Below are positions 32,860 through 52,766 of a DNA stretch of 64,000 nt, piece by piece. Each line of letters opens with the position of its first letter. Within the stretch, counting starts at the first letter, position 1. The notes beneath the pieces were generated by a model, which had not been told where the DNA came from, did no database searches, and saw only the letters and a list, made by a program, of their open reading frames with translations. Position numbers and translations under genes: made by a program. This stretch comes from a virus. The stretch spans positions 33,217-97,216 of the IMG/VR virus record IMGVR_UViG_3300045988_126669; one strand, 5' to 3'.

Positions 32860-33035
32860 AAACGTTGCTCGGCTCGCTGGCGGTAGTGGCGAGCCGAGTT
32901 TTATAAAAATCAGCAGTTTGCACAAATTTCTCGCCAAAACTTCGTCAAAGCGCACAATCGTCAAAATACCCGAAACTACGCCATCACATTTGTGTAAAAT
33001 GACTATTGACAATCCAGTAGCCATGTGCTATACTT
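32860..33035 (+). promoter_or_regulatory. module copy 0: GC hairpin (ctcggctcgc..gcgagccgag + TTTTAT), TTTGCACAAATTT box, then a TTGACA/TATACT promoter
   Basis: Shares hairpin + U-run, the ...TTTGCACAAATTTC... box and ...CAATCC/-10 with the copies at 36.4, 38.6, 40.6, 42.9, 45.2, 47.7 and 49.9 kb. Confidence 0.5.
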
Positions 33036-33066
33036 GTATCATCAAAAAGAAAGAGGTAAATCAACT

Positions 33067-33438
33067 ATGAAAACTATTATCAATTCTTTTATCAAGGTTG
33101 TCTTCATCATTCTTCCTCTTGTTGTTATTTTAGCTATTTCCGCGCTCAAAACTCCCGAGGCTATGGCTTGTGAGGAAGCGCCCCAGTCCTACGACCTCTC
33201 GGTCATTGAGAATTGGTGTGGTGCAGGCACGGAACGCGGAAGTATTCGTTTCGTCGGTGCAGAGGTCTACGCACGCGAGGGTGATACCCTGACGCTCATT
33301 GACGAGCAGGGCAATCTGTGGGACGTGGAAGCACTCAACATTGATGACAACGACTTCTTGCTCTTGTGGATTAACGACAATGACACTGATACTGTGGAAG
33401 ATGATACAATTATTAAGGTATGGAGAGAGGCTTATTAA
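33067..33438 (+). CDS. secreted/membrane-anchored small protein (123 aa, N-terminal signal/TM)
   Basis: Promoter TTGACA 33006 / TATACT 33029. AAAGAAAGAGG RBS. TAA stop. Confidence 0.55.
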   Translation: MKTIINSFIKVVFIILPLVVILAISALKTPEAMACEEAPQSYDLSVIENWCGAGTERGSIRFVGAEVYAREGDTLTLIDEQGNLWDVEALNIDDNDFLLLWINDNDTDTVEDDTIIKVWREAY

Positions 33439-33567
33439 GTCTCTCTCTTTCTTGCGGATCGGCGAAGATTGTTAAAAAATTAACAAGCAGAAAAGAGTAA
33501 AAAAGGTCTTGACAAATGTGCGGTAATGTGCTACAATGTAGATACAATAAGAAAGGGGAATACTCAA

Positions 33568-33858
33568 ATGACTAATCAGGATTTTTACAAGGCTCTCAAA
33601 GCAGAAAAGGAACGGTTAATGAACGAAAGCAAGCAGGCGTTCCGCGACTGTCAGGTTAAGCGTGGTGAGATGTCGAGGGCATGGCACGAGGTAGACGCGC
33701 TCGAACAGGCAAACAAGTTTGGCACACAGGAACTCAGCGACGCGTATGATGACTACGAGGAAGCCAGCCACGCAAGTATGTTAGCAGACAACTACCTCGA
33801 TGACATTGATGAAGCCATTGATAAGATAAATGAGCTGATAAGTCTTTACGCAGAATAA
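33568..33858 (+). CDS. hypothetical small protein (96 aa)
   Basis: TTGACA 33509-17-TACAAT 33532. GAAAGGGGAA RBS. Confidence 0.55.
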   Translation: MTNQDFYKALKAEKERLMNESKQAFRDCQVKRGEMSRAWHEVDALEQANKFGTQELSDAYDDYEEASHASMLADNYLDDIDEAIDKINELISLYAE

Positions 33859-33989
33859 GGGAGCAGTAATGCTCCCTTCCTAACGGCGTAGATTGTTAAA
33901 AAATTAACAAAGATTTTTTTCAAAAAGGTCTTGACAAATCAGTTAGAATGTGGTATTCTATAATCACAAAAAGGAAAGGGGAATGAAAA

Positions 33990-34199
33990 ATGATTTACGG
34001 CATTGTTTATTACACTAAGGGCGGTCAGGGCTATCTCTTCCAGCAGGCATTCGAGGAACAGCGCGCTATGGAGATTGCAGGTAAGATGAACGACTTACTT
34101 GCGACAGGTGCTACAATGTATAATGACAAGTCCTATGGCAAGCTCGACTTGCGGAATGTCGAGTATTTCACAGTTGAACCCAGTAGCGAAATGTATTAA
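33990..34199 (+). CDS. hypothetical small protein (69 aa)
   Basis: Own TTGACAA-N17-TATAAT promoter and an AAAGGAAAGGGG RBS. Confidence 0.55.
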   Translation: MIYGIVYYTKGGQGYLFQQAFEEQRAMEIAGKMNDLLATGATMYNDKSYGKLDLRNVEYFTVEPSSEMY

Positions 34200-34382
34200 G
34201 GGCGGGAGCGGGCTTCCCGCTCTTTCTCTTGCACCGTGGAGCGCGTGTAGGGCGTCCCAGCCCGAACTTTACCACAGTAAAGCGTTAAAGCAAAATTTTT
34301 TCCATTTTTTGCCAAAAACCACTTGACATTCCTATCCCGAAATGCTATAATAGTATCATCAAAGGAAAGGGGAATACAACAA

Positions 34383-34601
34383 ATGACTATCGAACAGATT
34401 ATGGAGACTTACAGCAAGGGCTATGACGTGATGATTGATGATGGATTCAACACTTGGACTCCCAGCGGGAACGATGAATGGGACGCATTAGATGAGTTTG
34501 GGTGGACTTGCACGAACAAGGAAGTCAATGAAGCGGGCATTAAGGGCATCGAAGTCTTACCGGAGAAAATCGTATTTGTCAAAGTTGGAAAAGAACTGTA
34601 A
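34383..34601 (+). CDS. hypothetical small protein (72 aa)
   Basis: Own promoter (ACTTGACA..TATAAT) and RBS. TAA. Confidence 0.55.
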   Translation: MTIEQIMETYSKGYDVMIDDGFNTWTPSGNDEWDALDEFGWTCTNKEVNEAGIKGIEVLPEKIVFVKVGKEL

Positions 34602-34681
34602 AAAAAATAAAAAAGGGACTTGACAAAAGCCCCTTTGTTTGGTATAATGAATACATCAAAAGAAAGAAAGAGGTAAATCAA

Positions 34682-34804
34682 ATGTCTACTCATGATGGTC
34701 TTGTTCTTCTCGCTATCTATGTTGGTGTTATCGGCGCGGGTGCGCTCATCGAATACATGGAGCACCGCGTAAAGAGAGCGATTCGCCATAGAAAGAGAAG
34801 TTGA
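34682..34804 (+). CDS. 40-aa single-pass membrane micro-protein
   Basis: Own promoter GACTTGACAAAAG..TATAAT and an AAGAGG RBS. TGA. Confidence 0.45.
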   Translation: MSTHDGLVLLAIYVGVIGAGALIEYMEHRVKRAIRHRKRS

Positions 34805-34912
34805 AAAACTTCTCTTTTTTTTTGAAAAAAACACTTGACATTCTTTGCGGTCTGTGGTATTATAATATCAGAAAGGGAAAGGAAAATCCCAAACACCAGA
34901 AAGGTTAATTCA

Positions 34913-35074
34913 ATGATTACTATCAAGACTCTTCTCGACGGCGTTCTTCCTGTCAAGCCCCTGGCCTATGTCCTCGGCGATGACTGGACGTATCTTTACT
35001 CCGACACCTATAAGGGTGTGGAGTTCGATGTCCACGCCTGCATGAATGGCGAGGTCGTCGCGGTGTTAAATTAA
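34913..35074 (+). CDS. hypothetical 53-aa protein
   Basis: Own promoter and RBS, then terminator 35073-35100. Confidence 0.5.
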   Translation: MITIKTLLDGVLPVKPLAYVLGDDWTYLYSDTYKGVEFDVHACMNGEVVAVLN

Positions 35075-35100
35075 GGGCTGAAAAGCCCTTAATTTTTTTT
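35073..35100 (+). terminator. intrinsic terminator aagggctgaaaagccctt + T9
   Basis: Perfect hairpin plus a U-run. Near-identical copies at 35338-35368 and 35691-35717. Confidence 0.65.
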
Positions 35101-35171
35101 ATAAAAACCCTTGACAAATCCAGAAGTAAGTGCTATACTATAATTACAGTAAAGAAAGGGGAAAACAAAAG

Positions 35172-35333
35172 ATGAAATACAGAGTTTACACCGAAGATAA
35201 TTACAGCACTCGCCTTGGCTACTATCTGCCGACTTACTTTAAGACTAAGAAAGAAGCGCAGGCGTATGCAAAGACCCTGACGAAGCCCGCGACCATTGAG
35301 CGGAAATTAGTCAATACGTGGGTCAAGTGCTAA
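35172..35333 (+). CDS. hypothetical 53-aa basic protein
   Basis: Own promoter CCCTTGACAAATCC..TATACT, an RBS and a terminator. Confidence 0.5.
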   Translation: MKYRVYTEDNYSTRLGYYLPTYFKTKKEAQAYAKTLTKPATIERKLVNTWVKC

Positions 35334-35437
35334 GAATAAGGGCTGAAAAAAGCCCTTATTTTTTTTTATAAAAACCCTTGACAAATCCAAAAGCAGATGG
35401 TATAATGTAAATACAATAAAGGAAGGGGATAAAAACC

Positions 35438-35692
35438 ATGACTACTTACAACATTCTTACTATTGGCACTTCTTCTGTTCCGAAGCTCGCGGGCAAATTC
35501 AACATCGCGGACACTGAAAACTTTCTCGACCGGTTAGAGGAAACGCTTTACATTCTCTTTGAATTAGAGCCGAAGTCCCGCGAATGGAGACGCGAATTTC
35601 TCAAACATCTTTCAGCGGACTTCACCTATCACTTTTGTGAAGATTCTCGCGTTGAAAAGTTAGGCAACAACATTATTGTTTATGAGAAATAA
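35438..35692 (+). CDS. hypothetical protein (84 aa)
   Basis: Own promoter, RBS and terminator. Confidence 0.55.
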   Translation: MTTYNILTIGTSSVPKLAGKFNIADTENFLDRLEETLYILFELEPKSREWRREFLKHLSADFTYHFCEDSRVEKLGNNIIVYEK

Positions 35693-35797
35693 GGGCGGAA
35701 ACGCCCTTATTTTTTTTCAAACTTTTTTCAAAAAAACTATTGACAAATCCCGAATCTATGGTATAATAAGAATATAAAAGGAAAGGGGATAAACCAA

Positions 35798-35989
35798 ATG
35801 TTATTTAATGTTTCTATCAACTACTACAACTACAAGGCAAGCGATGTATTCTATTATCGCCATGAAATTCCGGTGTTCGGGCGGGAAAACGCTTGTATCC
35901 TTGCAAAGAAGTTCATCGACGCGGACAACGTTGTTTCGGTCGATGTTATCGACGCACTGACCGGCGAAGTCATCGAGAGTTTGAACTAA
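35798..35989 (+). CDS. hypothetical protein (63 aa)
   Basis: Own promoter CTATTGACAAATCC..TATAAT and terminator 35993-36030. Confidence 0.55.
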   Translation: MLFNVSINYYNYKASDVFYYRHEIPVFGRENACILAKKFIDADNVVSVDVIDALTGEVIESLN

Positions 35990-36120
35990 AAAAAACTCGG
36001 CAGGATATACAAAATCCTGCCGAGTTTTTATACATTTTGCCTATTGACTTTTATTATAGCTCATGTTATACTATAATTGTTCCAAGGGGAACGACATTAA
36101 AAACGAAAGAGGTTGACAAA

Positions 36121-36360
36121 ATGACTTTGGGCATGGTTAAAAATGTGATTGGTCTGGTAAAAGGCGCACTGATGTTCTATGAGGGGAACGGCATTGAAGT
36201 GATAAATGAAAACACTTGCGGGCGCTATCTCAAAGACCGCAAAGGTCGCATGACTCTGAATGGTGAGGTTTTGGGCGTAAGCGAAGAATGGGTGCTGGGA
36301 TTGCCTGTCAGCGGTTTGAAAGCCAAAGATGATGTTCTTATCGTTTATGTTGACGGTTAA
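36121..36360 (+). CDS. hypothetical protein (79 aa)
   Basis: Promoter TTGACTTTTATTATAGCTCATGTTATACT. RBS GAAAGAGG. Terminator 36370-36405. Confidence 0.5.
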   Translation: MTLGMVKNVIGLVKGALMFYEGNGIEVINENTCGRYLKDRKGRMTLNGEVLGVSEEWVLGLPVSGLKAKDDVLIVYVDG

Positions 36361-36410
36361 AAAATAAAAATGAAAATCTCCCCAAAAATGGGGAGATTTT
36401 TTTGTGCATT

Positions 36411-36570
36411 TTACCTATTGACAATTTCAAAACTTTGTGGTATAATCGGCCGGCGCGCGAACGGACCTGGCGCGCCGAGTTTTTGTCAATAGGCAGATTC
36501 AACAAATTTTTGGGGCAAATTTTTGTGCAAAGTGTCAATAGACAGAATCCCGAATCGGTGCTATACTATA
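36411..36570 (+). promoter_or_regulatory. module copy 1: IR-flanked promoter (TTGACA 36418 / TATAAT 36441), GC hairpin 36447-36479 + U-run, TTTTTGTGCAAAG box, then promoter P2 (TAGACA 36539 / TATACT 36562)
   Basis: The 13-bp inverted repeat tgcctattgacaa / ttgtcaataggca brackets the first promoter and the hairpin. Confidence 0.6.
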
Positions 36571-36619
36571 ATCACAGTAAGGGAAGGAAAACCTACCAAA
36601 CCGGAAAGGGATTTACAAC

Positions 36620-36928
36620 ATGATTAACATTCGTTCTATTCTCAAACTCGCTGAAAATGACGGCCTGACTCTCAAATATGGCAAGAAAGTCAACTACAAG
36701 TCCGGCTGGCAGGTCGCTACCAACGGCGTTGAATGTAAGACCGCCCGCGAAGCTATTAACGCGGTTAAGGACTTCGGCGGAAACTGCGGTGTATGGCTTG
36801 CGAACGGCATCTATTATGTTGACAAGTCCAAGAGAGTGCAGACCAAAAAGCAGGCGCTTGAAATTGGCAAGGCGTGCAATCAAATCAGCGTATATGGCTG
36901 GGCGCGCGGGAATCTGGCCTACTGCTAA
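36620..36928 (+). CDS. hypothetical protein (102 aa)
   Basis: Driven by the module-1 promoter P2. TAA. Confidence 0.55.
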   Translation: MINIRSILKLAENDGLTLKYGKKVNYKSGWQVATNGVECKTAREAINAVKDFGGNCGVWLANGIYYVDKSKRVQTKKQALEIGKACNQISVYGWARGNLAYC

Positions 36929-37005
36929 AAAAAATTGCATATAGGGCTTGACAAAACAAGCCCTATATGCTACAATAAAAACATCAAAGGAAAGGGAGAA
37001 ACACC

Positions 37006-37278
37006 ATGGAAATTAAATATGCTTATGAAATGACGCGCAAAGCCGAAGAAGTCCGCAAAGAAATCCAAGCTAAAAATAATGCCCTCGCGCGTGCGTTTAT
37101 CGGAGACCACATCATGCCGGAAATTGAGCGTGTGGCAGGAACGGGAGAAACACTTTACGAGTGTTCTCTTGCTTCATTAAATGACAAGGGCGTCAGGCAG
37201 GCTTGCAAAGATATTATGCAGAATTATGGCTATAAAGCCAGCTACATTGACAACGTTCTTTCGATCTATTGGGGATAA
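37006..37278 (+). CDS. hypothetical protein (90 aa)
   Basis: Own promoter GGGCTTGACAAAAC..TACAAT. RBS AAAGGGAG. Confidence 0.55.
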   Translation: MEIKYAYEMTRKAEEVRKEIQAKNNALARAFIGDHIMPEIERVAGTGETLYECSLASLNDKGVRQACKDIMQNYGYKASYIDNVLSIYWG

Positions 37279-37379
37279 ATAAAGAGGGAAAATTTTTCCC
37301 TCTTTTTTCCAAAAAGCCCTTGACAAATTCAGAAACAGATGCTATAATAACAATACAATACAGGAAAGGGAATGTTATT

Positions 37380-37742
37380 ATGATGAACTTCGAAACTTAT
37401 AGTCTTTTGAGAAAGTGCCTTGATAATGGTACTTTCACCGGAATGGACGTGTTTCAGGCGGAACGGGCTTGCCAGAAATTCGAGGAAGCCCAGGAAGCGC
37501 GGAAACTGAAACAGGAAATCCGCAACACCATGATGAAAAACATGATGCTCGATGTTCTCTCAAAGGCGGAAAAGCCCCTGTGCCCTACGGAAATCCAGTT
37601 TATTCTTTACCGTGAGACCGGCAAAGAATATCCTTGCGCCACCGTTGCATGGTATTGCGGTCATCTTTGCTGGATTGACAGAAAGTTGACCTACACCAAA
37701 AAGGGAAGCCGGAGCTACTACTCCATTAGAAAAGAAAATTGA
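37380..37742 (+). CDS. hypothetical protein (120 aa)
   Basis: Own promoter CCCTTGACAAATTC..TATAAT. RBS GGAAAGGG. Confidence 0.5.
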   Translation: MMNFETYSLLRKCLDNGTFTGMDVFQAERACQKFEEAQEARKLKQEIRNTMMKNMMLDVLSKAEKPLCPTEIQFILYRETGKEYPCATVAWYCGHLCWIDRKLTYTKKGSRSYYSIRKEN

Positions 37743-37819
37743 AAAAAATAAGAAAAAGGGCTTGACAAAAAGCCCTTTTTCTGCTATACTTAATGTATCA
37801 AAGGAAAGGGGAATAAAAC

Positions 37820-37891
37820 AATGGAATGTCCTTATTGCGATGGAAAGTGCGGAACACACGCTCAATGCGTTAAATGCGGAAAGGGGAAATA
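37820..37891 (+). CDS. 23-aa zinc-ribbon micro-protein (CxxC..CxxC)
   Basis: Own promoter GGGCTTGACAAAAAG..TATACT. RBS AGGAAAGGGG. Confidence 0.4.
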
Positions 37892-37894
37892 AAA

Positions 37895-38251
37895 ATGGGA
37901 ACAGAATTCTTAATTGTTGGCGGAATTTTTAGTGCAGTCCTTGCGCTGTTTGTTTGCCTTGTCTGTTGGTGCAACATGGACAAGTCTCACCCAATAGTCA
38001 GACTGTTAGTTGGTCTTCTCATTTCGTGCGCTCTTGGCTACGGTATGACGGGCGCAATAGTCGCGGAACACAATGCCGATAAAAAGGCATGGAATGACGG
38101 CTATTGCTCCATTTGCGGAAATGAAATGGAATTTGTAAATGCTTCTCACGGTCGGCATGGAACAGTTTTTTACTATTGGTATTGCGATGAGTGCGGACAT
38201 ACGTTAGAGCTAACCTCTAACTTTGCAAAGGGGGAAACAAATAATGAATGA
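37895..38251 (+). CDS. membrane protein with a C-terminal zinc ribbon (118 aa)
   Basis: RBS AAAGGGGA. N-terminal TM helices. Confidence 0.5.
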   Translation: MGTEFLIVGGIFSAVLALFVCLVCWCNMDKSHPIVRLLVGLLISCALGYGMTGAIVAEHNADKKAWNDGYCSICGNEMEFVNASHGRHGTVFYYWYCDECGHTLELTSNFAKGETNNE

Positions 38252-38450
38252 AAAACCTATCCCGCAGGCTTTGAGAGAACAGGCAGACGCCCTTGAAAAG
38301 TTGGCTCAAAGAATTGCAAAAGAAAGTCAGAAATTTCCAGACGCGGAAGACTACAAAGACGGCGGAGAACTTGCGAACGCCTTGTTTGCGATTCAGTCCA
38401 AACTCCGCTATGAATACTTCTGGATTGCGGAAGCCATGTGGGACGTATAA
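38244..38450 (+). CDS. hypothetical protein (68 aa)
   Basis: RBS AAGGGGGAAACAAATAATG and terminator 38455-38490. Confidence 0.5.
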   Translation: MNEKPIPQALREQADALEKLAQRIAKESQKFPDAEDYKDGGELANALFAIQSKLRYEYFWIAEAMWDV

Positions 38451-38535
38451 TTTTCAGGCGAGATTTAATTATCTCGCCTGAAATTTTTTTTTCAAAAAAC
38501 TATTGACAAACTCGCCCCGTTGTGGTATTATAATC

Positions 38536-38604
38536 ATGTCAAGAGGAAATGGTAAGCCTCTTGAAGTAGTAAACAAATTTTTCATACTATGGTTTGCGCG
38601 GTAG
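38536..38604 (+). CDS. leaderless micro-ORF MSRGNGKPLEVVNKFFILWFAR (could instead be an sRNA)
   Basis: Promoter TTGACA 38503; the ATG lies 4-5 nt after the -10 box. Shares the ATGTCA(A/G)GAGG start with the units at 45383, 47924, 48052 and 48158. Confidence 0.3.
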   Translation: MSRGNGKPLEVVNKFFILWFAR

Positions 38605-38636
38605 CCGATAATTACCGCGCCCTTTCTATTTCATTT

Positions 38637-38820
38637 TTGTTAAAATTTTAACAATGGTTGTTCGGCCGGGCGCGCACGGCCCACGCGCCCGGAATTTCCA
38701 TTATATCACAGGGCCAGCAATTTGTCAAGCAAAAAGTTGCAAAAATTTGCACAAATTATTTTTCCCAATTTTGTGCGATCCGTCAATAGACAAATCTCTA
38801 AGGGTGTGTTATATTATAAT
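38637..38820 (+). promoter_or_regulatory. module copy 2: palindromic TTGTTAAAATTTTAACAA, GC hairpin 38666-38692 + AATTTCCATTATATCAC, AAATTTGCACAAATT box, then P2 (TAGACA 38787)
   Basis: Conserved blocks shared with the copies at 42.9, 45.2 and 47.7 kb. Confidence 0.55.
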
Positions 38821-38854
38821 TGTTCCAAGGGGACAGAAAGATGAGGTAAATAAA

Positions 38855-39061
38855 ATGACTAATTACAACATTCACTCTTTTATCAAGACCCAGCTTCTCT
38901 ATGCCGAGCAGATGCCCAGCGACGCCGAGCTTTTCAAGCACAATGCTTATGGTGCAGTTCAGTGGGAGTTATATCGCACGAATGACTCGACTCTTGAAAC
39001 ACAGTGGGAAATCATATATGCCCCCAAATTCGACGCTATCATCAGAAATTATCATTTCTGA
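38855..39061 (+). CDS. hypothetical protein (68 aa)
   Basis: Driven by module-2 P2. RBS GATGAGG. Confidence 0.5.
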   Translation: MTNYNIHSFIKTQLLYAEQMPSDAELFKHNAYGAVQWELYRTNDSTLETQWEIIYAPKFDAIIRNYHF

Positions 39062-39130
39062 TAAAAAGGGCTTGACAAAAGCCCTTTCGCATGATATAAT
39101 ACATATACAATCAAGAAAGAGGTAAGTAAA

Positions 39131-39280
39131 ATGGATATTATTCGAGTTTACAACAGACACACTAATGAAGTCCTTGAAAAGGTTTTCATGGACTCTGCGG
39201 ACGCAGATAACTTTGAAACTATTCTTGACTTCCTTGAAGCGGAATATGAGCGCTACCACGATGGGGAACAATTGTATTAA
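39131..39280 (+). CDS. hypothetical 49-aa protein
   Basis: Own promoter GGGCTTGACAAAAGCC..TATAAT. RBS AAGAGG. Confidence 0.45.
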   Translation: MDIIRVYNRHTNEVLEKVFMDSADADNFETILDFLEAEYERYHDGEQLY

Positions 39281-39352
39281 AGGGGCTTGACAAGCCCCTC
39301 CCTATATGATATAATACAATCAATCCAAGAGAAAAAGAAAGAGGTAAGACAA

Positions 39353-43506: not shown

Positions 43507-43597
43507 GAAAGACCGCAAAAATTTTGAAAAAAACACTTGACAAGCAAATCCAATAGTGGTATAATACAAGCATAGTAAAGGAAAGAGGTAAACACCT

Positions 43598-43891: not shown

Positions 43892-43959
43892 AATTTCTCT
43901 TGACAACCGCGCAGACGTATGGTATAATACAGATACAGTAAAGGAAAGGGGTAATACCT

Positions 43960-44460: not shown

Positions 44461-44515
44461 CAAAGCCCTACTCCAATGGTATAATAAATACATCAAATGA
44501 AAAGGAGAAAATAAA

Positions 44516-44722
44516 ATGGTTATTCTTTTAATTCTGCTGTCTCTCGCAGTTTCGTTCCTGCTTACCTCTGGTCTGGTTTGGCTTCTCTGCTGGCTTCTTC
44601 CCGCCCTCGGTATCACCGCAATCGGCACTTTCGTCATCGTGTTCTCGTGGAAGCTGGCACTCGCAATTTGGATTATTCTCGTGCTTTTGCAGTCCATCTT
44701 CTCGGTCGGTTCAAAGAGGTGA
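44516..44722 (+). CDS. 68-aa membrane protein
   Basis: Own promoter. RBS AAAGGAGAAAA. Confidence 0.5.
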   Translation: MVILLILLSLAVSFLLTSGLVWLLCWLLPALGITAIGTFVIVFSWKLALAIWIILVLLQSIFSVGSKR

Positions 44723-44727
44723 TAAAA

Positions 44728-44871
44728 ATGATGCCTTATTTTTGGGTTGATATTGGAATCATCGGAAAAGTAGTTGAAAAGATTGATGACGACCTTTTCA
44801 TCTATGAAACCGTTATCACCAAAGAACGCGCGACCGTGACCGCAAAATGGGTCAAGGAACATCTGCTTTAA
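44728..44871 (+). CDS. 47-aa hypothetical protein
   Basis: RBS AGAGGTGATAAAAATG. Confidence 0.4.
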   Translation: MMPYFWVDIGIIGKVVEKIDDDLFIYETVITKERATVTAKWVKEHLL

Positions 44872-44887
44872 GAGAGGAGAAATAAAA

Positions 44888-45145
44888 ATGAAAGTAAATT
44901 TTGGCACTAAGGGTCAGCTCCAAATTATCAACATTCTCAGCGGTGGCACGTTCACCACTCTGCGCTCCAACGGTAGCGGTATGGGAATGTATCTCAAAAT
45001 TGACAGCAACAACAACACGCCGTTTGTCCGGTCGAGAGGTTCGCAGTATTGCTACGCGGTGAATCTTGAAACGGGTCAGGTTCGCGAGTTTTCGCGCGAC
45101 AAGATGGTGACGCCGGTCAAGACCGAGGTCAATGTGATTGGCTAA
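44888..45145 (+). CDS. hypothetical protein (85 aa)
   Basis: RBS AGAGGAGAAATAAAAATG. Terminator 45150-45181. Confidence 0.55.
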   Translation: MKVNFGTKGQLQIINILSGGTFTTLRSNGSGMGMYLKIDSNNNTPFVRSRGSQYCYAVNLETGQVREFSRDKMVTPVKTEVNVIG

Positions 45146-45190
45146 AAGAAAATCTCCCCAAAAATGGGGAGATTTTTTTTGTTTACTTTG

Positions 45191-45377
45191 ACTATTGACA
45201 AAATCATCTGAATGTGATATAATGGGCCGGCCGTTTCCGCGCGCTACGGCCGGAATTTACCATTATACACCCCGCCAGCATTTTTGTCAAGAGAAATTTT
45301 GCACAAATTTCAATTTTATTTTTTCCCGTTATTTAGCTATTTTACCAATAGACAAATCAGTATCAATCTGCTATACT
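45191..45377 (+). promoter_or_regulatory. module copy 5: promoter (TTGACA 45195 / TATAAT 45218), GC hairpin 45224-45252 + AATTTACCATTATAC, TTTTGCACAAATTTC box, then P2 (TAGACA 45349 / TATACT 45372)
   Basis: Conserved blocks. Confidence 0.55.
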
Positions 45378-45382
45378 ACATA

Positions 45383-45496
45383 ATGTCAGGAGGAAAGAGT
45401 AAGATCTTCGGAAAGGCAGTTCCCTTGACCATTATACCAAAATCCGACGGAATGTTCCAAGCGTGGCGTGCCGAACAAACTTTCAAAAAAGTTTGA
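45383..45496 (+). CDS. leaderless micro-ORF MSGGKSKIFGKAVPLTIIPKSDGMFQAWRAEQTFKKV (37 aa)
   Basis: The ATG is 5 nt after the P2 -10 box and there is no SD. ATGTCAGGAGG family. Confidence 0.35.
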   Translation: MSGGKSKIFGKAVPLTIIPKSDGMFQAWRAEQTFKKV

Positions 45497-45564
45497 AAAA
45501 CCCCTTGACAAACCGTTCTACGTAGGGTATAATGAATACATCAAATGAGAGAGGTAAAAACAAG

Positions 45565-45594
45565 ATGACTTCTAATGCTCGCCCACCGCCTTAA
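45565..45594 (+). CDS. leader micro-ORF MTSNARPPP*
   Basis: Promoter CCCTTGACAAACC..TATAAT. RBS GAGAGG. Poly-Pro then stop. Confidence 0.35.
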   Translation: MTSNARPPP

Positions 45595-45655
45595 AAACTA
45601 ATGGTTTATTGAATTGGATTGGATTAAGATTATAGATAAAGGTAGGTATAAACAA

Positions 45656-45688
45656 GATGTATAGTAATAAACCTCGCGACCGCCCCTA
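45656..45688 (+). CDS. leader micro-ORF MYSNKPRDRP*
   Basis: RBS AAAGGTAGG. Ends Arg-Pro-stop (TnaC-like). Confidence 0.35.
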
Positions 45689-45787
45689 AAAAAAATTGCA
45701 AAAACTATTGACAGCCTGCTCCGCCTATGATATAATAACTACATTAAAGACAAGGGCAGTCTTAAAAACCAGAAAGGAATTGATACT

Positions 45788-46168
45788 ATGGCTACTTCTA
45801 CTTCTACCACTAAGAAGCTCACCAAGCGCGACCGTTTTGAGGCTCTGCTCAAAATGAGCGAGGTTCAGGCAAATCCTGATATGGTGGCGTTCATCGAGCA
45901 TGAGATTGAACTGCTCGCCAAGAAGAACGCGGGCGACAAGAAGCCCACGGCCAAGCAGATGGAGAATGACGCTGTGAAGCAGGTCATTCTGGACGAGATG
46001 ACCGCGAACCCCGACAAGCTGTATACCGTAACCGACCTCATCAAGACCGTTCCCGAACTCGCGGAGTATACCAATCAGCGCGTTTCCGCTCTTCTGCGTC
46101 AGATGATTGACGCCGGTTCGGTTGTCAAGACGGTTGACAAGCGCAAGTCCTACTTCTCCCTCGCGTAA
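45788..46168 (+). CDS. hypothetical protein (126 aa), paralog of 48467..48844
   Basis: About 65% identity to the 48467 gene. Both carry the conserved GAAAGGAATTGATACTATG leader. Confidence 0.6.
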   Translation: MATSTSTTKKLTKRDRFEALLKMSEVQANPDMVAFIEHEIELLAKKNAGDKKPTAKQMENDAVKQVILDEMTANPDKLYTVTDLIKTVPELAEYTNQRVSALLRQMIDAGSVVKTVDKRKSYFSLA

Positions 46169-46310
46169 AGGAAAAAGGGCAGGGGATAAAAAAATCCCCT
46201 GCCCTGCAAAAAAAACTGTTGACAAACCAATAGCAAAGTGATATACTATGTATAGAGATTGAGAGAACGATGGTAAACCTCAATCTACTTTTCCAATAGG
46301 AGACGATAAA

Positions 46311-47087
46311 ATGGGTATTGATAGGCGCAAAAACTACGGCATTATGCTGGACACGGAAACCGCAAACACCATTCAGGACGGCGATAAGCTGGATATGTCA
46401 AATGTACTTCCCTACGACTTCGGCTGGGCGGTCATTGATTCCAAGGGAAATGTTTATGAAACTCATTCTTTTGTGAATCGCGACATTTTCTGCTACGAGC
46501 GCGACCTCATGCGGTCTGCCTACTACGCCGACAAGATTCCTCGCTACATTGAGGATATTCAAAACGGCACTCGCATTATGGCTGACCTTTACGAAATTCG
46601 TCTTGCGTTCTGCGAATGTGTCGAGCGCTACAACTGCTCTTTTGTGTGCGCTCATAATATGCGGTTCGACCTTAACGCCTGCAACAACGCGCAAAGATGG
46701 GACACGAAAAGCAAGTATCGCTATTTCTTCCCCTACGACCTCGAAATTTGGGACACGTTGAAAATGGCGCGTCAGGTTATCGGTAAAATGCCTACTTACC
46801 GCGACTATTGCGAAAAGAACGGCTACAAGACCAAGAACGGACAGCTCCGTTTCACCGCAGAAATTCTCTATCGCTTTATCAGCGGTGAGGACAACTTTGA
46901 TGAATCCCACACGGGATTAGAAGATGTTCTCATTGAAGTTGAGATTCTGCGCTACTGCGTCCGACAGCACAAGGAAATGGACAAGTCCCTTTTCAAAACT
47001 CCCACGGTGAAGCGTCCCAAGCCTACCGAGTTTCAGCGTGCGCTCATGCGAAACATTAAGGAAAATCCTATGATAAACATGAGCTAA
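46311..47087 (+). CDS. DEDDh-family 3'-5' exonuclease (DnaQ/RNase T-like), 258 aa
   Basis: Exo I MLDTETAN, Exo II HNMRFDLN, Exo III SHTGLEDVLIEVEIL. The 5'UTR carries the conserved hairpin gattgagagaacgatggtaaacctcaatc. Confidence 0.7.
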   Translation: MGIDRRKNYGIMLDTETANTIQDGDKLDMSNVLPYDFGWAVIDSKGNVYETHSFVNRDIFCYERDLMRSAYYADKIPRYIEDIQNGTRIMADLYEIRLAFCECVERYNCSFVCAHNMRFDLNACNNAQRWDTKSKYRYFFPYDLEIWDTLKMARQVIGKMPTYRDYCEKNGYKTKNGQLRFTAEILYRFISGEDNFDESHTGLEDVLIEVEILRYCVRQHKEMDKSLFKTPTVKRPKPTEFQRALMRNIKENPMINMS

Positions 47088-47166
47088 AAAAAAATAGGGG
47101 AATAGGGCTTGACAAGTCCTATTCCCTATGGTATAATCAATGTATCAAATGAAAGAGGTGTTTCAC

Positions 47167-47445
47167 ATGAACGCTAAACAAGTCCTTTTTGTAGTCCCTG
47201 ATGACAATGACCCTCACATGGGCATTTTAATCGACCATGACTATATTATCTGCGCCGAGTGCGGTGGCGTCTTTGAAGCTGATGAAGTTTTCATTATTCA
47301 GACCTACGACTCTTGGGTAAATTTTGAAGATGAAATTGCGGACGAGCTTGACCTGCTGACTGCAAAAGACATTGGCAAGGAGCTGGATAGCAAGGAAAAG
47401 TTCGGCTGGGACGCGTGGAAAGAAGCCATTAAGGGGGAGTTTTGA
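47167..47445 (+). CDS. hypothetical protein (92 aa, CxxC)
   Basis: Own promoter GGGCTTGACAAGTCC..TATAAT. RBS AAGAGG. Confidence 0.5.
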   Translation: MNAKQVLFVVPDDNDPHMGILIDHDYIICAECGGVFEADEVFIIQTYDSWVNFEDEIADELDLLTAKDIGKELDSKEKFGWDAWKEAIKGEF

Positions 47446-47447
47446 AA

Positions 47448-47687
47448 ATGGATTTAGATTTTAATTACATGACTGACGAGGAACTGGACGAACTCATTCT
47501 CCAAATACAAGAAGCCAGAAAAGCCCGCGCAGAAAGCCGAAAGATTGACCTTTGGAACAATGTTCGGCGGTCGGTTCAGAATTACATCATGGAATGTGGA
47601 ATGATTGAACTCTTTACCGAGGACTACAATTCCACGCTGGACGCTGATTCTTTCAGGATTCCCGGCGAGATTAACCTGCTGGACTAA
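47448..47687 (+). CDS. hypothetical protein (79 aa)
   Basis: RBS AAGGGGGAG. Terminator 47695-47725. Confidence 0.5.
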   Translation: MDLDFNYMTDEELDELILQIQEARKARAESRKIDLWNNVRRSVQNYIMECGMIELFTEDYNSTLDADSFRIPGEINLLD

Positions 47688-47730
47688 AATAAAAAACTAC
47701 CCAAAATTGGGTAGTTTTTTTTGTCTATTT

Positions 47731-47919
47731 TGTCTATTGACAAACGCGGATTTTTGTGATAAAATGGGCGGACCGCCAGCGTACGCAGCGGTCCGAATTT
47801 TCCATTATATCACGCCCCGCCAATTTTGTCAAGAGAAAAATTGCACAAAAGTGAAGAAAATTTTTTCCCGTAATTTGGTTATTTTGTCAATTGCAATCTA
47901 CGGGCAATCTGCTATAATA
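47731..47919 (+). promoter_or_regulatory. module copy 6: promoter (TTGACA 47736 / TAAAAT 47759), GC hairpin 47765-47794 + AATTTTCCATTATATCAC, AAATTGCACAAAAG box, then P2 (TTGCAA 47891 / TATAAT 47914)
   Basis: Conserved blocks. Confidence 0.55.
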
Positions 47920-47923
47920 GATA

Positions 47924-48022
47924 ATGTCAGGAGGGAACAGTGAATTGCCGAACGGCTTCGCTGATGGGTGTGATAACTCGGTAACTGACCCGTTTTCAAA
48001 GAAATTTGAAATTCCCTCTTGA
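47924..48022 (+). CDS. leaderless micro-ORF MSGGNSELPNGFADGCDNSVTDPFSKKFEIPS
   Basis: The ATG is 5 nt after the -10 box. Confidence 0.3.
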   Translation: MSGGNSELPNGFADGCDNSVTDPFSKKFEIPS

Positions 48023-48051
48023 CAAGTAGTGCGAAAAGTGCTACAATAGAT

Positions 48052-48126
48052 AATGTCAAGAGGACAGAGCCGTTGTACGCTCAATTGTGAGATAAGAACT
48101 CTGAAAAAAATTTATAAAACCTCTTG
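48052..48126 (+). CDS. leaderless micro-ORF MSRGQSRCTLNCEIRTLKKIYKTS
   Basis: TTGACA 48018-17-TACAAT 48041, with the ATG 5 nt after the -10 box. Confidence 0.3.
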
Positions 48127-48157
48127 ACAAACCCCAGCGAGTGTGCTACAATAGAAA

Positions 48158-48277
48158 ATGTCGAGAGGGAGTAACCCAAGAAATCCGAGGGCGCGCGACT
48201 TTGAGAAAGTATAGGAAGTAAACATAATACACCACGTTGTAAAGCCAAACGTTGAACGCGAAAGTGAGTTTGATTGA
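48158..48277 (+). CDS. leaderless micro-ORF MSRGSNPRNPRARDFEKV(TAG)EVNIIHHVVKPNVERESEFD
   Basis: TTGACA 48124-17-TACAAT 48147, with the ATG 5 nt after the -10 box. Has an in-frame TAG. Confidence 0.25.
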
Positions 48278-48466
48278 ACCAACTATCCTTGACGCGGTTT
48301 TCCGCTGACAAATAGATTGAATCAACAAACAATAAATTATCCGTCAGGTCGGGGTAGTAATTCGTGTGAAAAGTTTGCGAAACCTCTTGACAAACACTCC
48401 AAAGTGTGGTATACTCAATAATATCAAAAGGGTAGCGACCTACCGCCAAAGAAAGGAATTGATACT

Positions 48467-48844
48467 ATGTCTACTTCTACTGTTAAGAAGCTCACCAAGC
48501 GCGACCGTTTCGAGGCTCTGCTCAAACTGTCCGAGGTTCAGGCTGACCCTGCTATGGTTGAGTTTATCAACCACGAAATCGACCTGCTGTCCCGCAAGAA
48601 CGCCGGTGACAAGAAGCCGACCGCGAATCAGATTGCCAACGACGGCTACAAGGACATTATCTTTGCCGAGCTGTCCGCGAATCCTGACAAGCTGTATACC
48701 GTGACCGAACTCATCAAGAACGTGGACGGTCTGGGCGACCTCACCAATCAGCGCGTTTCCGCTCTTCTGCGTCAGATGATTGAAGCGAACGGCGTCGAGA
48801 AGATTGTGGACAAGCGCAAGTCCTACTTCCGTCTCGCCCACTGA
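48467..48844 (+). CDS. hypothetical protein (125 aa), paralog of 45788..46168
   Basis: Promoter CTCTTGACAAACAC..TATACT. Terminator 48850-48890. Confidence 0.6.
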   Translation: MSTSTVKKLTKRDRFEALLKLSEVQADPAMVEFINHEIDLLSRKNAGDKKPTANQIANDGYKDIIFAELSANPDKLYTVTELIKNVDGLGDLTNQRVSALLRQMIEANGVEKIVDKRKSYFRLAH

Positions 48845-48944
48845 TTCAGGGGGAGCGCCTGAAAAAAATCAGGCGCTCCCAAAAATTTCTCTTGACATTT
48901 GCTGACGGCGGTGTTATAATCATACTTGAAAGGGGGCAAAAGAA

Positions 48945-49352
48945 ATGCCTAAAATGAGTAAAAAAGACTTTCAGGCAAAGATTGATAATCTGATGAAAAA
49001 GTTAGATTGTACTGCCGAGGAAGCAAAAGAAATTCTCATGGACGATGATGACATTGACCATGGAATCGCCAAGGACTTTGACCTGTCCGCGGAAAAGCTC
49101 AAAGAAGCTAACAAGTATTCTAAAACCGGAACACGCAAAGCGCCGACCGCTTATAAGTTTGAGAAGCGACAGCGCAAGGAAAACCCCACAAAACGCTCGA
49201 TTATTGCTGAACTTGCGACTTTTTTGCGAGAAAACAGCGAAAATGCGTGCGAAAATGTGGAAATCACGAACATTGAGCGCATGATTGCGTTCCATGTGGG
49301 CGAAAATGACTATGAATTGACCCTGATTCAGAAGCGAAAGCCCAAAAATTGA
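48945..49352 (+). CDS. hypothetical protein (135 aa)
   Basis: Promoter TCTCTTGACATTTG..TATAAT. RBS AAAGGGGG. Terminator 49355-49398. Confidence 0.55.
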   Translation: MPKMSKKDFQAKIDNLMKKLDCTAEEAKEILMDDDDIDHGIAKDFDLSAEKLKEANKYSKTGTRKAPTAYKFEKRQRKENPTKRSIIAELATFLRENSENACENVEITNIERMIAFHVGENDYELTLIQKRKPKN

Positions 49353-49475
49353 CAAAAAAGGGTGAAAAACCGCTGAAAAATGCGGTTTTTCACCCAAAAA
49401 CAAGTCAAAAAATGCAAAAAATAATGGTTGAGAGAACGATGGTAAACCTCAATCAATAGAGAGGATTTTGTGCCG

Positions 49476-49886
49476 ATGGAAGAAATTACTATTAAGCTAC
49501 GCCGATTTAAGGACGGCAGACCGCCCGTTTCAATGGAGTTTATGCCTAATTGTGGCGAGAATCTGAAAGACGTTCAAGCGGTCTACTTTTTCAAGTTTTA
49601 CAACAACAACAAACTTGAATTTAACAAGGTAGGCACTTCCGCAAAAGACGTTGTAGGGCGTTTGCGTGATGAAATTGGCGAGTATGCAAAAAAGTATGCT
49701 ATCACGCGCGTTGAAATTCATCGAATCCGTTCTTGCGGGGATTATCCCGCCGAGGGCGCGGAAAGCGCGTTGCGTGCGGAACTGATTAGACGCTATCCCA
49801 AAGCGTTCCGCAAGAATGACCGCTTTTTTAATGTGGACATTAACCCCACGGTTTTCGATGAAATTGTAAACGCATTTCTTGCATAA
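49476..49886 (+). CDS. hypothetical protein (136 aa)
   Basis: The 5'UTR has the conserved hairpin gttgagagaacgatggtaaacctcaatc (identical core to the one at 46258). Terminator 49895-49930. Confidence 0.5.
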   Translation: MEEITIKLRRFKDGRPPVSMEFMPNCGENLKDVQAVYFFKFYNNNKLEFNKVGTSAKDVVGRLRDEIGEYAKKYAITRVEIHRIRSCGDYPAEGAESALRAELIRRYPKAFRKNDRFFNVDINPTVFDEIVNAFLA

Positions 49887-49937
49887 ATATTCAATCAGCA
49901 GGTTGACTAAAACCTGCTGATTTTTTTTGTGCATTTT

Positions 49938-50010
49938 GCCTATTGACACCGATCGGAAAATGTGGTATAATGGCCGGGCCGTCGCGGGACGTGCCGGCCC
50001 GATTTCCCGA
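49938..50010 (+). promoter_or_regulatory. module copy 7 (first half only): promoter (TTGACA 49943 / TATAAT 49966) + GC hairpin 49972-50001, flanked by CCGATCGG repeats
   Basis: Same promoter-hairpin arrangement. The downstream part diverges (CATATG inverted repeats). Confidence 0.45.
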
Positions 50011-50280
50011 TCGGTATACCCATATGCAAAATTTCTCATACTTCTAGCACCTCTCCATATGGCCCAAAAAAATCCCGAAAATTGACTTTTTATAAAAAAT
50101 ATGTTATAATGATAAAAAAAGACTTTTTTAAGCCCGCGTAGGATCATATGCCTTTATGATTAATTAAAAACTGCTTCGCCCTTACATTGTTTCACGCGTA
50201 TGTTTTCATTTAAAAAAATCTTGACATTTTTAAAAAAAAAGTATATAATATATATAGAAAATAAGAAAAGAGGTATTCAT

Positions 50281-50658
50281 ATGGATATGAATGATATTAT
50301 TGCTCGTCTGAAAAATGGTGAGGACGCTCAGGCTATTGCGGACGAAATGGCTAAGTCTCTGAACGATGCGGTTAAGCAGGTGGAGAAGGAAACCAAGCAG
50401 GCCGATCGGAAGACCGCGCTCGCGCAAGAAATCGCCGATCGGATTAACGAGTATGCCGCTCTTAATGGCTACAAGGATTCCGCGTTGACCGCGTCCGATG
50501 TGGAGAACATCTTTGCTGAGGTTTACGGTCTTATGACCGGGGTTAACGATCTTCTTGACGTGCTTTTTCCCAAGAGCACCCCGGTAAAGGTTAAGAAGGT
50601 CAAGAAAACCGATGATGATGTAATTGCCGAATTTTTGAACACTTTCATTAATAAGTGA
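50281..50658 (+). CDS. hypothetical protein (125 aa)
   Basis: Promoter TTGACA 50221-17-TATAAT 50244. RBS AAGAGG. Terminator 50735-50765. Confidence 0.55.
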   Translation: MDMNDIIARLKNGEDAQAIADEMAKSLNDAVKQVEKETKQADRKTALAQEIADRINEYAALNGYKDSALTASDVENIFAEVYGLMTGVNDLLDVLFPKSTPVKVKKVKKTDDDVIAEFLNTFINK

Positions 50659-50762
50659 ACAATGTGTAGGGTGAGATATTTTTCATCCTAAGAATCGACA
50701 ATTTCACCAAGAATTGCCTAATATGAAAAAAGAGAGACTAAAAAAAGTCTCTCTTTTTTTTT

Positions 50763-52765: not shown

Positions 52766-52766
52766 A

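Follow-up and report, generated by a model that had tools for sequence, protein, structure and literature searches.

Host-type promoters, a TAG-free codon dialect and rapid gene turnover suggest a hyperplastic early region in an amber-recoded Bacillota phage

We analysed a 64,000-nt stretch of viral DNA (IMG/VR record IMGVR_UViG_3300045988_126669, positions 33,217-97,216), here called the window, whose own coordinates are used throughout. Its GC-rich, TAG-free block at 32690-50760 carries 43 protein genes on the + strand together with 44 + strand and four - strand consensus promoters, and is ~68% coding. We consider it probable that this block is a hyperplastic early region of an amber-recoded Bacillota phage of ~190 kb, driven by host sigma-A and built of cassettes that resemble the promoter-early stem-loops (PeSLs) known from T4-type phages. 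The sequences directly show the expression signals and their enrichment, protein-level selection, the absence of TAG, a codon split, gene turnover, the placement of homology breakpoints, and conservation of the layout across the clade; we infer that the region is expressed early, that its promoters and terminators are active and that recombination caused the mosaicism, as well as every function given for a protein.

Promoters of the form TTGACA-N17-TATAAT, allowing one mismatch at most, number 46 in the window, where dinucleotide-preserving shuffles predict 1.28 (maximum 5), and 39 of the 46 lie at 33006-50249, 35 on the + strand and four on the - strand. A wider rule (at least 11 of 12 consensus positions, or 10 of 12 plus the extended -10 TG) gives 44 + strand promoters between 32.9 and 50.3 kb, and nearly all promoters of the block have the TG. 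The string CTTGACAAA has 16 copies in the window, every one inside the early region. Alignment of the 31 promoter-proximal genes yields the consensus aAAAaa.c.CTTGACAAa-N-TGnTATAaT with an A-rich tract upstream, and in 22 of them 29-33 nt separate the -10 box from the ATG. The general ribosome-binding site is a polypurine Shine-Dalgarno sequence (SD), GAAAGG(G/A)G or AGAAAGAGGT. Repeat finding groups the cassette elements into families of 40-90 nt with 60-85% identity, which makes them, in effect, repeats of a single expression cassette. Terminator-like sites are also in excess (43 versus 19.6 +/- 5.3 in shuffles), and GC hairpins, for which a role in termination or attenuation is predicted only, stand at ~30 junctions. 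A hairpin plus T-run follows only ~18-20 of the 43 genes, and about nine hairpins overlie the -35 box of the next promoter without a clear + strand T-tract. Strong bidirectional terminators divide the block into ~8 segments. Rfam gave no match at the gathering threshold, only sub-threshold terminator-like noise (E up to 1).

A first-pass annotation of this DNA had described ~45 monocistronic micro-genes, nearly every one with its own TTGACA-N17-TATAAT promoter and a terminator. The dense array of small, independently promoted ORFan genes with host-type signals and the excess of both signals hold, and such an array has the appearance of a Bacillota phage's early region, but only 31 of the 43 genes have a promoter of their own, and terminators of the full hairpin and T-run type are confined to the subset given above. 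Twelve genes sit in operons of two to four in which stop and start codons overlap or abut (for example 37821/37895/38244 and 39353/39681/40043/40392), and ~13 promoters drive no protein gene; the organisation is thus not strictly one gene to one transcript, as had been claimed. Near-identical terminators do occur (35068-35095 and 35332-35363), although the string quoted for them is found once, and the quoted ribosome-binding site AAAGGAAAGGGG is found only five times, the polypurine SD being the general feature.

The incomplete set of terminators bears on a different account of transcription, in which a few long polycistronic read-through RNAs would do most of the work, the hairpins would be stabilisers or processing sites, and many of the private promoters would be redundant or weak. 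The low number of genes with a hairpin and T-run, the hairpins over -35 boxes that lack a + strand U-tract, and the placement of all genes on one strand with short gaps are consistent with this account. Nevertheless, 11-12 of 12 consensus positions are matched by the promoters, which also have an extended -10 and an A-rich tract upstream, and the bidirectional terminators would split the block into its ~8 segments. The promoters are furthermore kept as a class across the clade while the intervening genes change, which argues that they are themselves under selection. We therefore regard predominant read-through as unlikely and favour host-driven cassettes.

The genes, curated by reading the sequence at 33.0-50.7 kb, encode proteins of 23-258 aa (median 85). 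Compared with homologs in related contigs, they have a pooled nonsynonymous polymorphism (pN) of 0.039, a synonymous polymorphism (pS) of 0.245 and a pN/pS of 0.16. The ratio is 0.03-0.36 in each of the 41 genes with variant homologs, including 0.14 for a 23-aa zinc ribbon and 0.28 for a 40-aa membrane peptide. This purifying selection at the protein level indicates that the micro-genes encode real proteins. It also bears on the idea that the array acts mainly as DNA or RNA, as a sink for sigma-A RNA polymerase or a source of regulatory RNA, with the small open reading frames (ORFs) secondary. The promoters without an ORF, seven promoter-plus-GC-hairpin modules (four with convergent promoters; described below) and the modest coding density would suit such a role. 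Because selection on protein sequence extends to all 41 testable genes and the SD sequences and their spacing are optimised for translation, we judge it highly improbable, and a protein-coding array of cassettes remains the preferred reading. Long antisense ORFs of up to 339 aa lie over + strand genes at 43888-44907, 45725-46225, 46398-46910 and 49530-50147 (all on the - strand). We take them to be shadow ORFs of GC3-rich coding sequence (GC3, GC content at third codon positions) rather than genes, since the + strand genes that they overlap show purifying selection.

Outside the block, the window is legible only in a different genetic code. In the standard code no ORF in the window exceeds 368 aa, and PHROG matches to portal and virion proteins cover fragments only. 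The packaging and structural module (53-31550, - strand) tiles into 14 ORFs of 243-2776 aa only if TAG is read as sense; these contain 184 in-frame TAGs, 84 of them in one 2776-aa tape-measure-like protein. Reading TGA or TAA as sense has no comparable effect on long ORFs. TAG is also sense in 31527-32132 (+), 51832-52794 (-) and 57055-57954 (+). Since the flanking ORFs are full-length only with TAG as sense, the phage is amber-recoded. Read with TAG as sense, TerL can be aligned to TerLs of Bacillota phages along 88-100% of its length, with identities of ~47% to Enterococcus phages VRE9_4, H1, EF1 and EF5, 46% to Geobacillus virus E3 and 45% to the amber-recoded human gut phage phAss-1. Its nearest homologs are from Enterococcus, Geobacillus and SPbeta-like phages, and every annotated one belongs to a Bacillota phage. 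Contigs of relatives in IMG/VR reach ~190-200 kb; the window is part of an amber-recoded phage of ~190 kb, which places it with the recoded gut phages that Borges et al. described. Pfam searches with the recoded late proteins gave no matches.

The early genes are distinct in both stop and sense codons. Their stops are 26 TAA, 17 TGA and no TAG, compared with 13 TAA and one TGA in the late genes, and none of the 43 has TAG as an internal codon or at its end; were 15% of stops TAG, the probability of such an absence would be 9e-4. Counted over every frame, the early genes contain 44 TAG trinucleotides where 219 would be expected, a ~5-fold depletion that CTA does not share. In close relatives, TAG ends a single one of the 207 GC3-rich early ORFs. 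An apparent frequency of 8-10% TAG stops in relatives' early ORFs was discarded, since all but one of these belonged to a low-GC3 sigma-like gene or to the type of gene that starts at 31741 in the window. GC3 is 0.533 in the early array versus 0.189 in the late genes, Leu is encoded by TTA in 9% versus 63% of cases, and Arg by CGC in 44% versus 13%. With TAG counted as Gln, the Gln codons are 68 CAG and 21 CAA in the early genes, and 184 TAG, 252 CAA and 46 CAG in the late genes. The amino-acid compositions of the two sets are similar. In its codon content the array is code-neutral and distinct from the late genes; we propose that it would be readable both before and after the code change.

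Two genes beside the array combine features of both sets. The sigma-like gene (30492-31550, - strand; within 30492-31600) points away from the array, has a perfect sigma-A-type promoter (31600-31572) and encodes 351 aa with two in-frame TAGs read as sense; in nearly all relatives it likewise contains in-frame TAGs, at 1-7 positions. At the array edge, the gene starting at 31741 has an 11/12 host-type promoter, low GC3 and in-frame TAGs. This combination suggests a class of genes that are transcribed early and fully translated only after suppression starts. The sigma-factor label comes solely from PHROG 5767; Pfam and PDB sequence searches were empty and leave that identity unconfirmed. An AlphaFold model of a full-length homolog has a predicted local distance difference test score (pLDDT) of just 61, and Foldseek found no meaningful match to it. 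Upstream of the two largest late genes, a motif TTTTT(A)GAAAA(T)(A/T)ATAGAGT(A/G)ATG occurs on the - strand at 6491-6510 and 14972-14991; a late-promoter element built on ATAGAGT(A/G)ATG was dropped, as there are only two intergenic copies.

Out of 474 IMG/VR matches, from a clade with ~3000 protein relatives, we profiled 48 loci whose neighbouring sigma-like protein is 71-99% identical to that of the window. The 9 kb beside the sigma-like gene in these relatives, those at 71-84% identity included, contain 5-20 consensus promoters on the array strand versus 0-1 in the late flank, and the array is usually the GC-richer of the two. Gene content turns over rapidly within this conserved layout. 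Any given micro-gene occurs in between 2 and 13 of the 13 contigs whose sigma-like protein is 97-99% identical. All fetched loci together encode 686 distinct promoter-proximal proteins (median 89 aa) in 231 families, of which 128 are singletons and just 26 occur in the window. A search of the phage collection found no near-identical DNA for either the array or the late region.

Homology between the window and close relatives breaks predominantly outside genes: 75 of 95 breakpoints (41 of 55 clusters) fall outside gene interiors, which make up 66% of the block, leaving 34% as non-interior sequence (p ~1e-9 for clusters). In one relative (L001), an unrelated 80-aa ORF replaces gene 43598-43891 behind the same promoter and 5' untranslated region (5'UTR), near-identical up to the SD. 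The same relative has a 2-kb deletion that removes five genes and one module, with its junction in the GCCCTT arm of promoter-embedded hairpins.

The change in GC content at the edges of the block, from 0.28-0.30 in the flanks to 0.39-0.45, invites the explanation that the block is a foreign insertion (an island, a satellite or plasmid-derived DNA) from a higher-GC source. The sharpness of these boundaries, the GC3 contrast (0.53 vs 0.19), direct repeats at the left edge, and the ending of several relatives' contigs at the block edges would all fit such an origin. In the 48 profiled loci, however, the position of the array does not vary, nor does the gene from which it diverges, and a syntenic small-gene array is present in the cultured Enterococcus phage H1. 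Pfam and PHROG identified no integrase, replicase or mobilisation gene among the block products, and contig breaks are expected where co-assembled strains differ. We consider a foreign insertion very unlikely and an early region belonging to the phage lineage the better description. Chimeric assembly was rejected as an explanation of the GC jump because dozens of independent contigs have the same junctions. Two direct copies of TTGAAATTGAAAATTGATTT (32632-32651 and 32671-32690) mark where the GC-rich block begins on the left. Several relatives' contigs stop near window positions 32.7-33.2 kb or 50.85-50.99 kb; these may be assembly breaks in a hypervariable region or genome ends, and strain heterogeneity accounts equally well for their clustering at the block edges.

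The cassettes closely resemble PeSLs, repeated motifs of T4-type phages (RB49, phi1, PST and nt-1) that combine a sigma-70 consensus promoter with an AT-rich tract and a GC stem-loop. PeSLs stand beside ORFans in hyperplastic regions, and recombination between them produces indels between close relatives (PMC2839356, PMC4122927). In the array, too, an AT-rich tract and a host-type promoter are joined by a GC stem-loop, which may precede, overlie or follow the -35 and -10 boxes, with SD and start codon behind; small ORFan genes are flanked, and the indel and replacement junctions of relatives lie inside the motifs. Unlike the T4-like myoviruses, the array phage is a relative of large Bacillota siphoviruses. 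PeSLs have no sequence homology to the array cassettes, which have an extended -10 and a strong SD. Both of these features are typical of Bacillota. Whereas PeSLs are found in several regions of a genome, the array is a single contiguous 18-kb block that, in a recoded genome, coincides with the code-neutral, GC3-rich part. Encapsidated mini-circles are a further feature of PeSLs; the array is known here from sequence alone. Different in lineage and without homology to PeSLs, the array cassettes are an analogue of them and not a member.

The closest functional precedent in Bacillota is SPO1's host-takeover module, for which a later account citing Stewart et al. 1998 gives 26 mostly small early genes in a 12.4-kb terminal region, with promoters and ribosome-binding sites typical of highly expressed genes (PMC6873191). 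Common to the two systems are clustered small early genes in a Bacillota phage, strong sigma-A promoters and ribosome-binding sites, and a mixture of single genes and short operons. They differ in that the array has ~2.5 promoters per kb and ~32 protein-coding units for 43 genes, and Pfam and PHROG detected no homology to SPO1 gp37-gp60 among the 43 products. The SPO1 module sits in the terminal redundancy and its products shut off host synthesis or division; the array is likened to it by genes and signals alone.

Recoded gut phages (Borges et al., bioRxiv 10.1101/2021.08.26.457843; phAss-1 group, PMC10607447) share the use of TAG as sense in structural and packaging genes, a low GC content, and a subset of genes free of in-frame stops that is proposed to be translated before the code switch, Borges et al. 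having put forward standard-code early genes. In the array, by contrast, the TAG-free set is a discrete, promoter-dense, GC3-rich block. Term searches met no occurrence of 'promoter' or 'early genes' in Borges et al., and none of 'promoter' or 'early' in the phAss-1 paper; in neither paper did they bring up a within-genome codon split or cassette shuffling, and the passages of Borges et al. on GC content and codon usage describe no such split.

Enterococcus phage H1 (OP534061; relatives VRE9_4, EF1 and EF5) carries ~24 small hypothetical genes, a HAD hydrolase and an exonuclease among them, in a syntenic array that diverges from its packaging and structural module. This array has ~26 consensus promoters in 11 kb (locus L102, 1700-13000), with several -35 boxes inside a GC hairpin. 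H1 uses the standard code, however, its array is not GC-enriched (0.285 vs 0.332), and only its exonuclease is detectably homologous to a product of the window. Since this standard-code phage has a syntenic promoter array without GC enrichment, the promoter-per-gene layout is a lineage trait, and the TAG-free, GC3-rich character is specific to the recoded clade. We found no published description of the H1 array layout. With T4-type PeSLs, the SPO1 module and the H1 array as precedents, the layout is not without precedent; the first-pass annotation had called its density unusual for a phage. Absent from that annotation were the recoded flanks, the codon split and the non-coding promoter units. 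What is new is that the cassette array coincides with a code-neutral, codon-distinct block and is accompanied by host-promoter genes with TAGs and by convergent modules.

In the mechanism that we propose, each cassette would consist of an A-rich tract, a near-consensus sigma-A promoter with extended -10, and a ~24-nt 5'UTR with a polypurine SD, often with an added GC stem-loop that would terminate or attenuate the upstream unit or overlap the next -35. Unmodified host RNA polymerase and ribosomes could then express each gene strongly and independently from the time of DNA entry, and the absence of TAG together with GC3-rich codons would keep these genes legible before and after the phage changes the code. 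The repeated cassettes would also serve as short patches of homology for deletion, insertion and swapping of ORFans between related phages, in the manner of PeSLs. The products would form an accessory set with fast turnover, most likely manipulating the host or its defences.

A more tentative extension, which we hold to be possible though rather doubtful, is that the genome is written in two dialects that act as a timer, the code switch and not a transcription factor alone gating the early-late shift. The host dialect would be that of the 18-kb array (standard code, no TAG, GC3-rich, consensus sigma-A promoters and SDs), and the phage dialect that of the rest of the window (TAG as sense, AT3-rich codons). 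A third class, with perfect host promoters and in-frame TAGs (30492-31550 and the gene from 31741), would be transcribed immediately but await the suppressor for full translation. The convergent-promoter and GC-hairpin modules would give rise to ~110-nt antisense RNAs that insulate or tune blocks of the array.

Several points weigh against the cassette reading. Early timing and the activity of promoters and terminators are deduced from consensus matches. About half of the genes are without a canonical + strand terminator, making substantial read-through into neighbours likely. The window contains no tRNA and thus no CUA suppressor, and the 20-kb loci of 24 relatives have no suppressor tRNA, just one tRNA-Lys; TAG is very probably read as Gln, an assignment made by analogy with code 15 because the window has no suppressor tRNA. 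Describing the early codons as host-like is an assumption. Breakpoints between genes are also expected from selection against broken genes and are no proof of recombination caused by the cassettes. Finally, Pfam and PHROG found no match to a known host-takeover or anti-defence protein among the 43 products.

Most products (39 of 43) have no Pfam or PHROG match; the other four match families. Gene 42136 matches Pfam PF04014 (E=1.7e-9) and PHROG 4681, 'antitoxin' (E=4.5e-19); gene 43960 matches PHROG 415 and 2643 and, weakly, Pfam PF25109; gene 44888 matches PHROG 7832, which has no annotated function. Gene 46311 matches PHROG 20187 (E=1.7e-43), DEDDh motifs can be read from its sequence, and its product is 39% identical to an 'exodeoxyribonuclease' of H1. 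Genes 45788 and 48467 are paralogs (77% nucleotide identity; repeat family D8) in a family of >3300 database proteins. The model of 45788 (pLDDT 83) has a helical N-terminal part and a winged helix, and the fold matches winged helices of MepR, ArsR and Fur (E ~1e-3, root-mean-square deviation ~2 A over 62-67 columns), with helix-turn-helix matches in BFVD; the modelled fold makes the pair candidate DNA-binding regulators. PDB sequence searches with five proteins returned nothing. The products had also been characterised as mostly acidic proteins, Cys-rich zinc ribbons and tiny membrane peptides. This is apt for acidity (~24 of 43), but transmembrane segments are predicted in only seven, and the clear double-CxxC zinc ribbons number two (one is just 23 aa long), with three more possible. 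A role in host takeover or anti-defence is suggested by position, size, turnover and analogy.

The units are described here in order along the + strand; each begins at its promoter unless stated otherwise, and promoter matches (of 12) and the extended -10 (TG) are given in brackets. The first unit, 33006-33448 (11/12, TG), encodes a 123-aa protein (33067-33438; pI 4.1, pN/pS 0.10) with an N-terminal transmembrane or signal segment and has a hairpin at 33422-33448. It is followed by 33509-33892, with an acidic 96-aa product (33568-33858; pN/pS 0.20) and a GC hairpin past the stop, and by 33931-34223 (10/12, TG), with a 69-aa gene (33990-34199) and a hairpin at 34199-34223. The unit at 34323-34636 (12/12; gene 34383-34601, 72 aa, pI 4.1) ends in a hairpin (34612-34636) whose loop holds the -35 of the next promoter, that of 34620-34818 (12/12), which encodes the 40-aa membrane peptide (34682-34804) and has a terminator at 34791-34818. 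Two 53-aa genes come next, 34913-35074 in unit 34835-35095, which ends in AAGGGCTGAAAAGCCCTT plus a T-run (35068-35095), and 35172-35333 in unit 35111-35363, the latter with a basic product and the near-identical terminator at 35332-35363. Unit 35378-35722 (12/12) has an 84-aa gene (35438-35692) and a terminator, and 35740-36029 (12/12, 16-nt spacer) a 63-aa gene (35798-35989) and a bidirectional hairpin (35991-36029). Unit 36044-36400 (10/12, TG) carries a 79-aa gene (36121-36360) and a bidirectional terminator (36373-36400). The most conserved micro-gene, present in all 13 close relatives, is 36620-36928 (102 aa, pN/pS 0.08) in unit 36539-36928 (TAGACA/TATACT), which has no terminator.

Unit 36937-37304 opens with a 14-bp hairpin (36937-36970) over the -35 of promoter 36948 and contains a 90-aa gene (37006-37278) and a terminator (37282-37304). 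In 37320-37777 (12/12; gene 37380-37742, 120 aa with six Cys), the loop of the hairpin at 37756-37777 again holds the next -35, which belongs to the operon at 37762-38483. This operon encodes the 23-aa double-CxxC zinc ribbon (37821-37892), a 118-aa protein with two transmembrane segments and three CxxC motifs (37895-38251) and a 68-aa protein (38244-38450), with pN/pS 0.12-0.26 and a terminator at 38452-38483. Units 38787-39061 (10/12, TG; gene 38855-39061, 68 aa) and 39072-39280 (12/12, -35 in a hairpin loop; gene 39131-39280, 49 aa, pI 4.2) precede the operon at 39287-40596 (12/12), with genes 39353-39691 (112 aa), 39681-40037 (118 aa), 40043-40279 (78 aa) and 40392-40565 (57 aa) and a terminator at 40568-40596. 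A weak promoter (9/12, TG) starts the operon at 40734-41288, with genes 40793-41137 (114 aa, two transmembrane segments) and 41130-41288 (52 aa, five Cys). The operon at 41304-42071 consists of 41362-41601 (79 aa), found in just 2 of 13 close relatives, and 41598-42071 (157 aa, two transmembrane segments).

The product of unit 42077-42588 (gene 42136-42588, 150 aa) has an N-terminal AbrB/MazE (SpoVT-AbrB) domain, and unit 42607-42868, with a hairpin over its -35, has a 59-aa gene (42665-42844) and a bidirectional terminator (42849-42868). The operon at 43043-43506 (TAGACA/TATACT) encodes an acidic 87-aa protein (43103-43366) and a 47-aa protein with two transmembrane segments (43363-43506). 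Unit 43537-43891 (12/12) contains the 97-aa gene 43598-43891, and unit 43900-44460 (12/12) the gene 43960-44460, whose 166-aa product resembles HAD phosphatases and 5'-nucleotidases. Genes 44516-44722 (68 aa, three transmembrane segments), 44728-44871 (47 aa) and 44888-45145 (85 aa) form the operon at 44457-45180 (12/12), closed by a bidirectional terminator (45145-45180). In 45708-46205 (12/12), a 45-nt 5'UTR precedes gene 45788-46168 (126 aa), with the modelled winged-helix fold. Unit 46219-47087 has the hairpin TTGAGAGAACGATGGTAAACCTCAA in its 5'UTR and encodes the 258-aa protein with DEDDh/DnaQ-like exonuclease motifs (46311-47087). The operon at 47109-47720 (12/12) consists of 47167-47445 (92 aa, acidic, one CxxC) and 47448-47687 (79 aa) and ends in a bidirectional terminator (47691-47720). 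The remaining units are 48387-48880 (gene 48467-48844, 125 aa; hairpin 48851-48880 without a T-run), 48892-49395 (12/12; gene 48945-49352, 135 aa, pN/pS 0.04; hairpin 49360-49395), 49431-49922 (gene 49476-49886, 136 aa; no consensus promoter; terminator 49893-49922) and, last, 50221-50759 (12/12, no TG; gene 50281-50658, 125 aa, acidic; terminator 50726-50759). The TTGAGAGAACGATGGTAAACCTCAA element (5-bp stem, 15-nt loop) is found at 46250-46280 and 49431-49457, ahead of genes 46311 and 49476, and may be a shared translational operator.

Between these units are the seven promoter-plus-GC-hairpin modules, four of which have consensus promoters facing each other across an 8-10-bp GC hairpin. Three are degenerate + strand copies that lack an ORF or a - strand promoter. 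In M1 (36418-36485) the consensus promoter leads directly into a GC hairpin and T-run, with neither an ORF nor a - strand promoter; M3 (40614-40680) is degenerate in the same way, with promoter, GC hairpin and T-run but no ORF; and M7 (49943-50010) has a 12/12 promoter at 49943 and a GC hairpin, with no - strand promoter. In M2 (38503-38728) the + promoter at 38503 precedes an ORF-less ATGTCAAGAGG transcript, with a GC hairpin at 38661-38698 and a perfect - promoter at 38728-38700. Perfect convergent - promoters are also present in M4 (42891-42984; + promoter 42891, hairpin 42922-42948, - promoter 42984-42956), M5 (45195-45290; + promoter 45195, hairpin 45227-45254, - promoter 45290-45262) and M6 (47737-47832; + promoter 47737, hairpin 47772-47795, - promoter 47832-47804, - terminator 47720-47691). 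The predicted - strand RNAs would begin at the foot of the hairpin and cross the + promoter in antisense direction as far as the bidirectional terminator upstream; they would extend from 42949 to 42840 in M4 (~110 nt; terminator 42868-42849), from 45255 to 45147 in M5 (~108 nt; terminator 45172-45155) and from 47797 to 47683 in M6. Across relatives the module hairpins occur in 47 distinct versions, in which stem complementarity is kept and the sequence changed.

Other promoters also lead into DNA without an evident gene. At 45349-45700 (+), promoter 45349 precedes a 37-codon frame without coding constraint, and promoter 45505 (12/12) two SD-preceded mini-ORFs with Pro-rich C-termini, MTSNARPPP* (45565-45594) and MYSNKPRDRP* (45657-45689). 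Comparison with relatives gives the mini-ORFs a pN/pS of 1.1 and shows no constraint on coding, and they were rejected as constrained coding sequence; they might be minigenes, or might encode peptides that act as leaders or in stalling. Three consecutive ORF-less units at 47891-48386 (+) have promoters 47891, 48019 and 48124, and their transcripts would begin near ATGTC(A/G)(A/G)GAGG. This sequence lies 5-7 nt past the -10, with no SD-preceded ORF, at 38536, 45383, 47924, 48053 and 48158. Leaderless micro-ORFs of the form MS(R/G)G... after these five promoters were rejected as a coding class, the frame at 45383 having a pN/pS of 2.4 and frame-breaking gaps. The frames at 47924 and 48053 have too few variants in relatives for a coding test, and 48158 is an exception at which coding is possible (pN/pS 0.24 over five variants, no gaps). 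The ORF-less units are probably non-coding RNAs or leaders, most of them small RNAs with a common 5' end.

The architecture has consequences for annotation as well as for phage biology. Gene callers that use the standard code shatter two thirds of the window and may miscall the ORF-less units as genes. The 231 micro-protein families delimited by cassettes are candidates for screens for host manipulation and anti-defence, and H1 is a possible experimental model for this architecture. A discrete TAG-free block with its own codon usage gives the idea of standard-code early genes a testable form and, if the proposal is true, translation would be the step that delays some genes with host promoters and in-frame TAGs. 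If true, it would also mean that the logic of PeSLs reaches beyond T4-type phages into a large and abundant clade of Bacillota gut phages, in which the cassettes would be both units of expression and handles for recombination.

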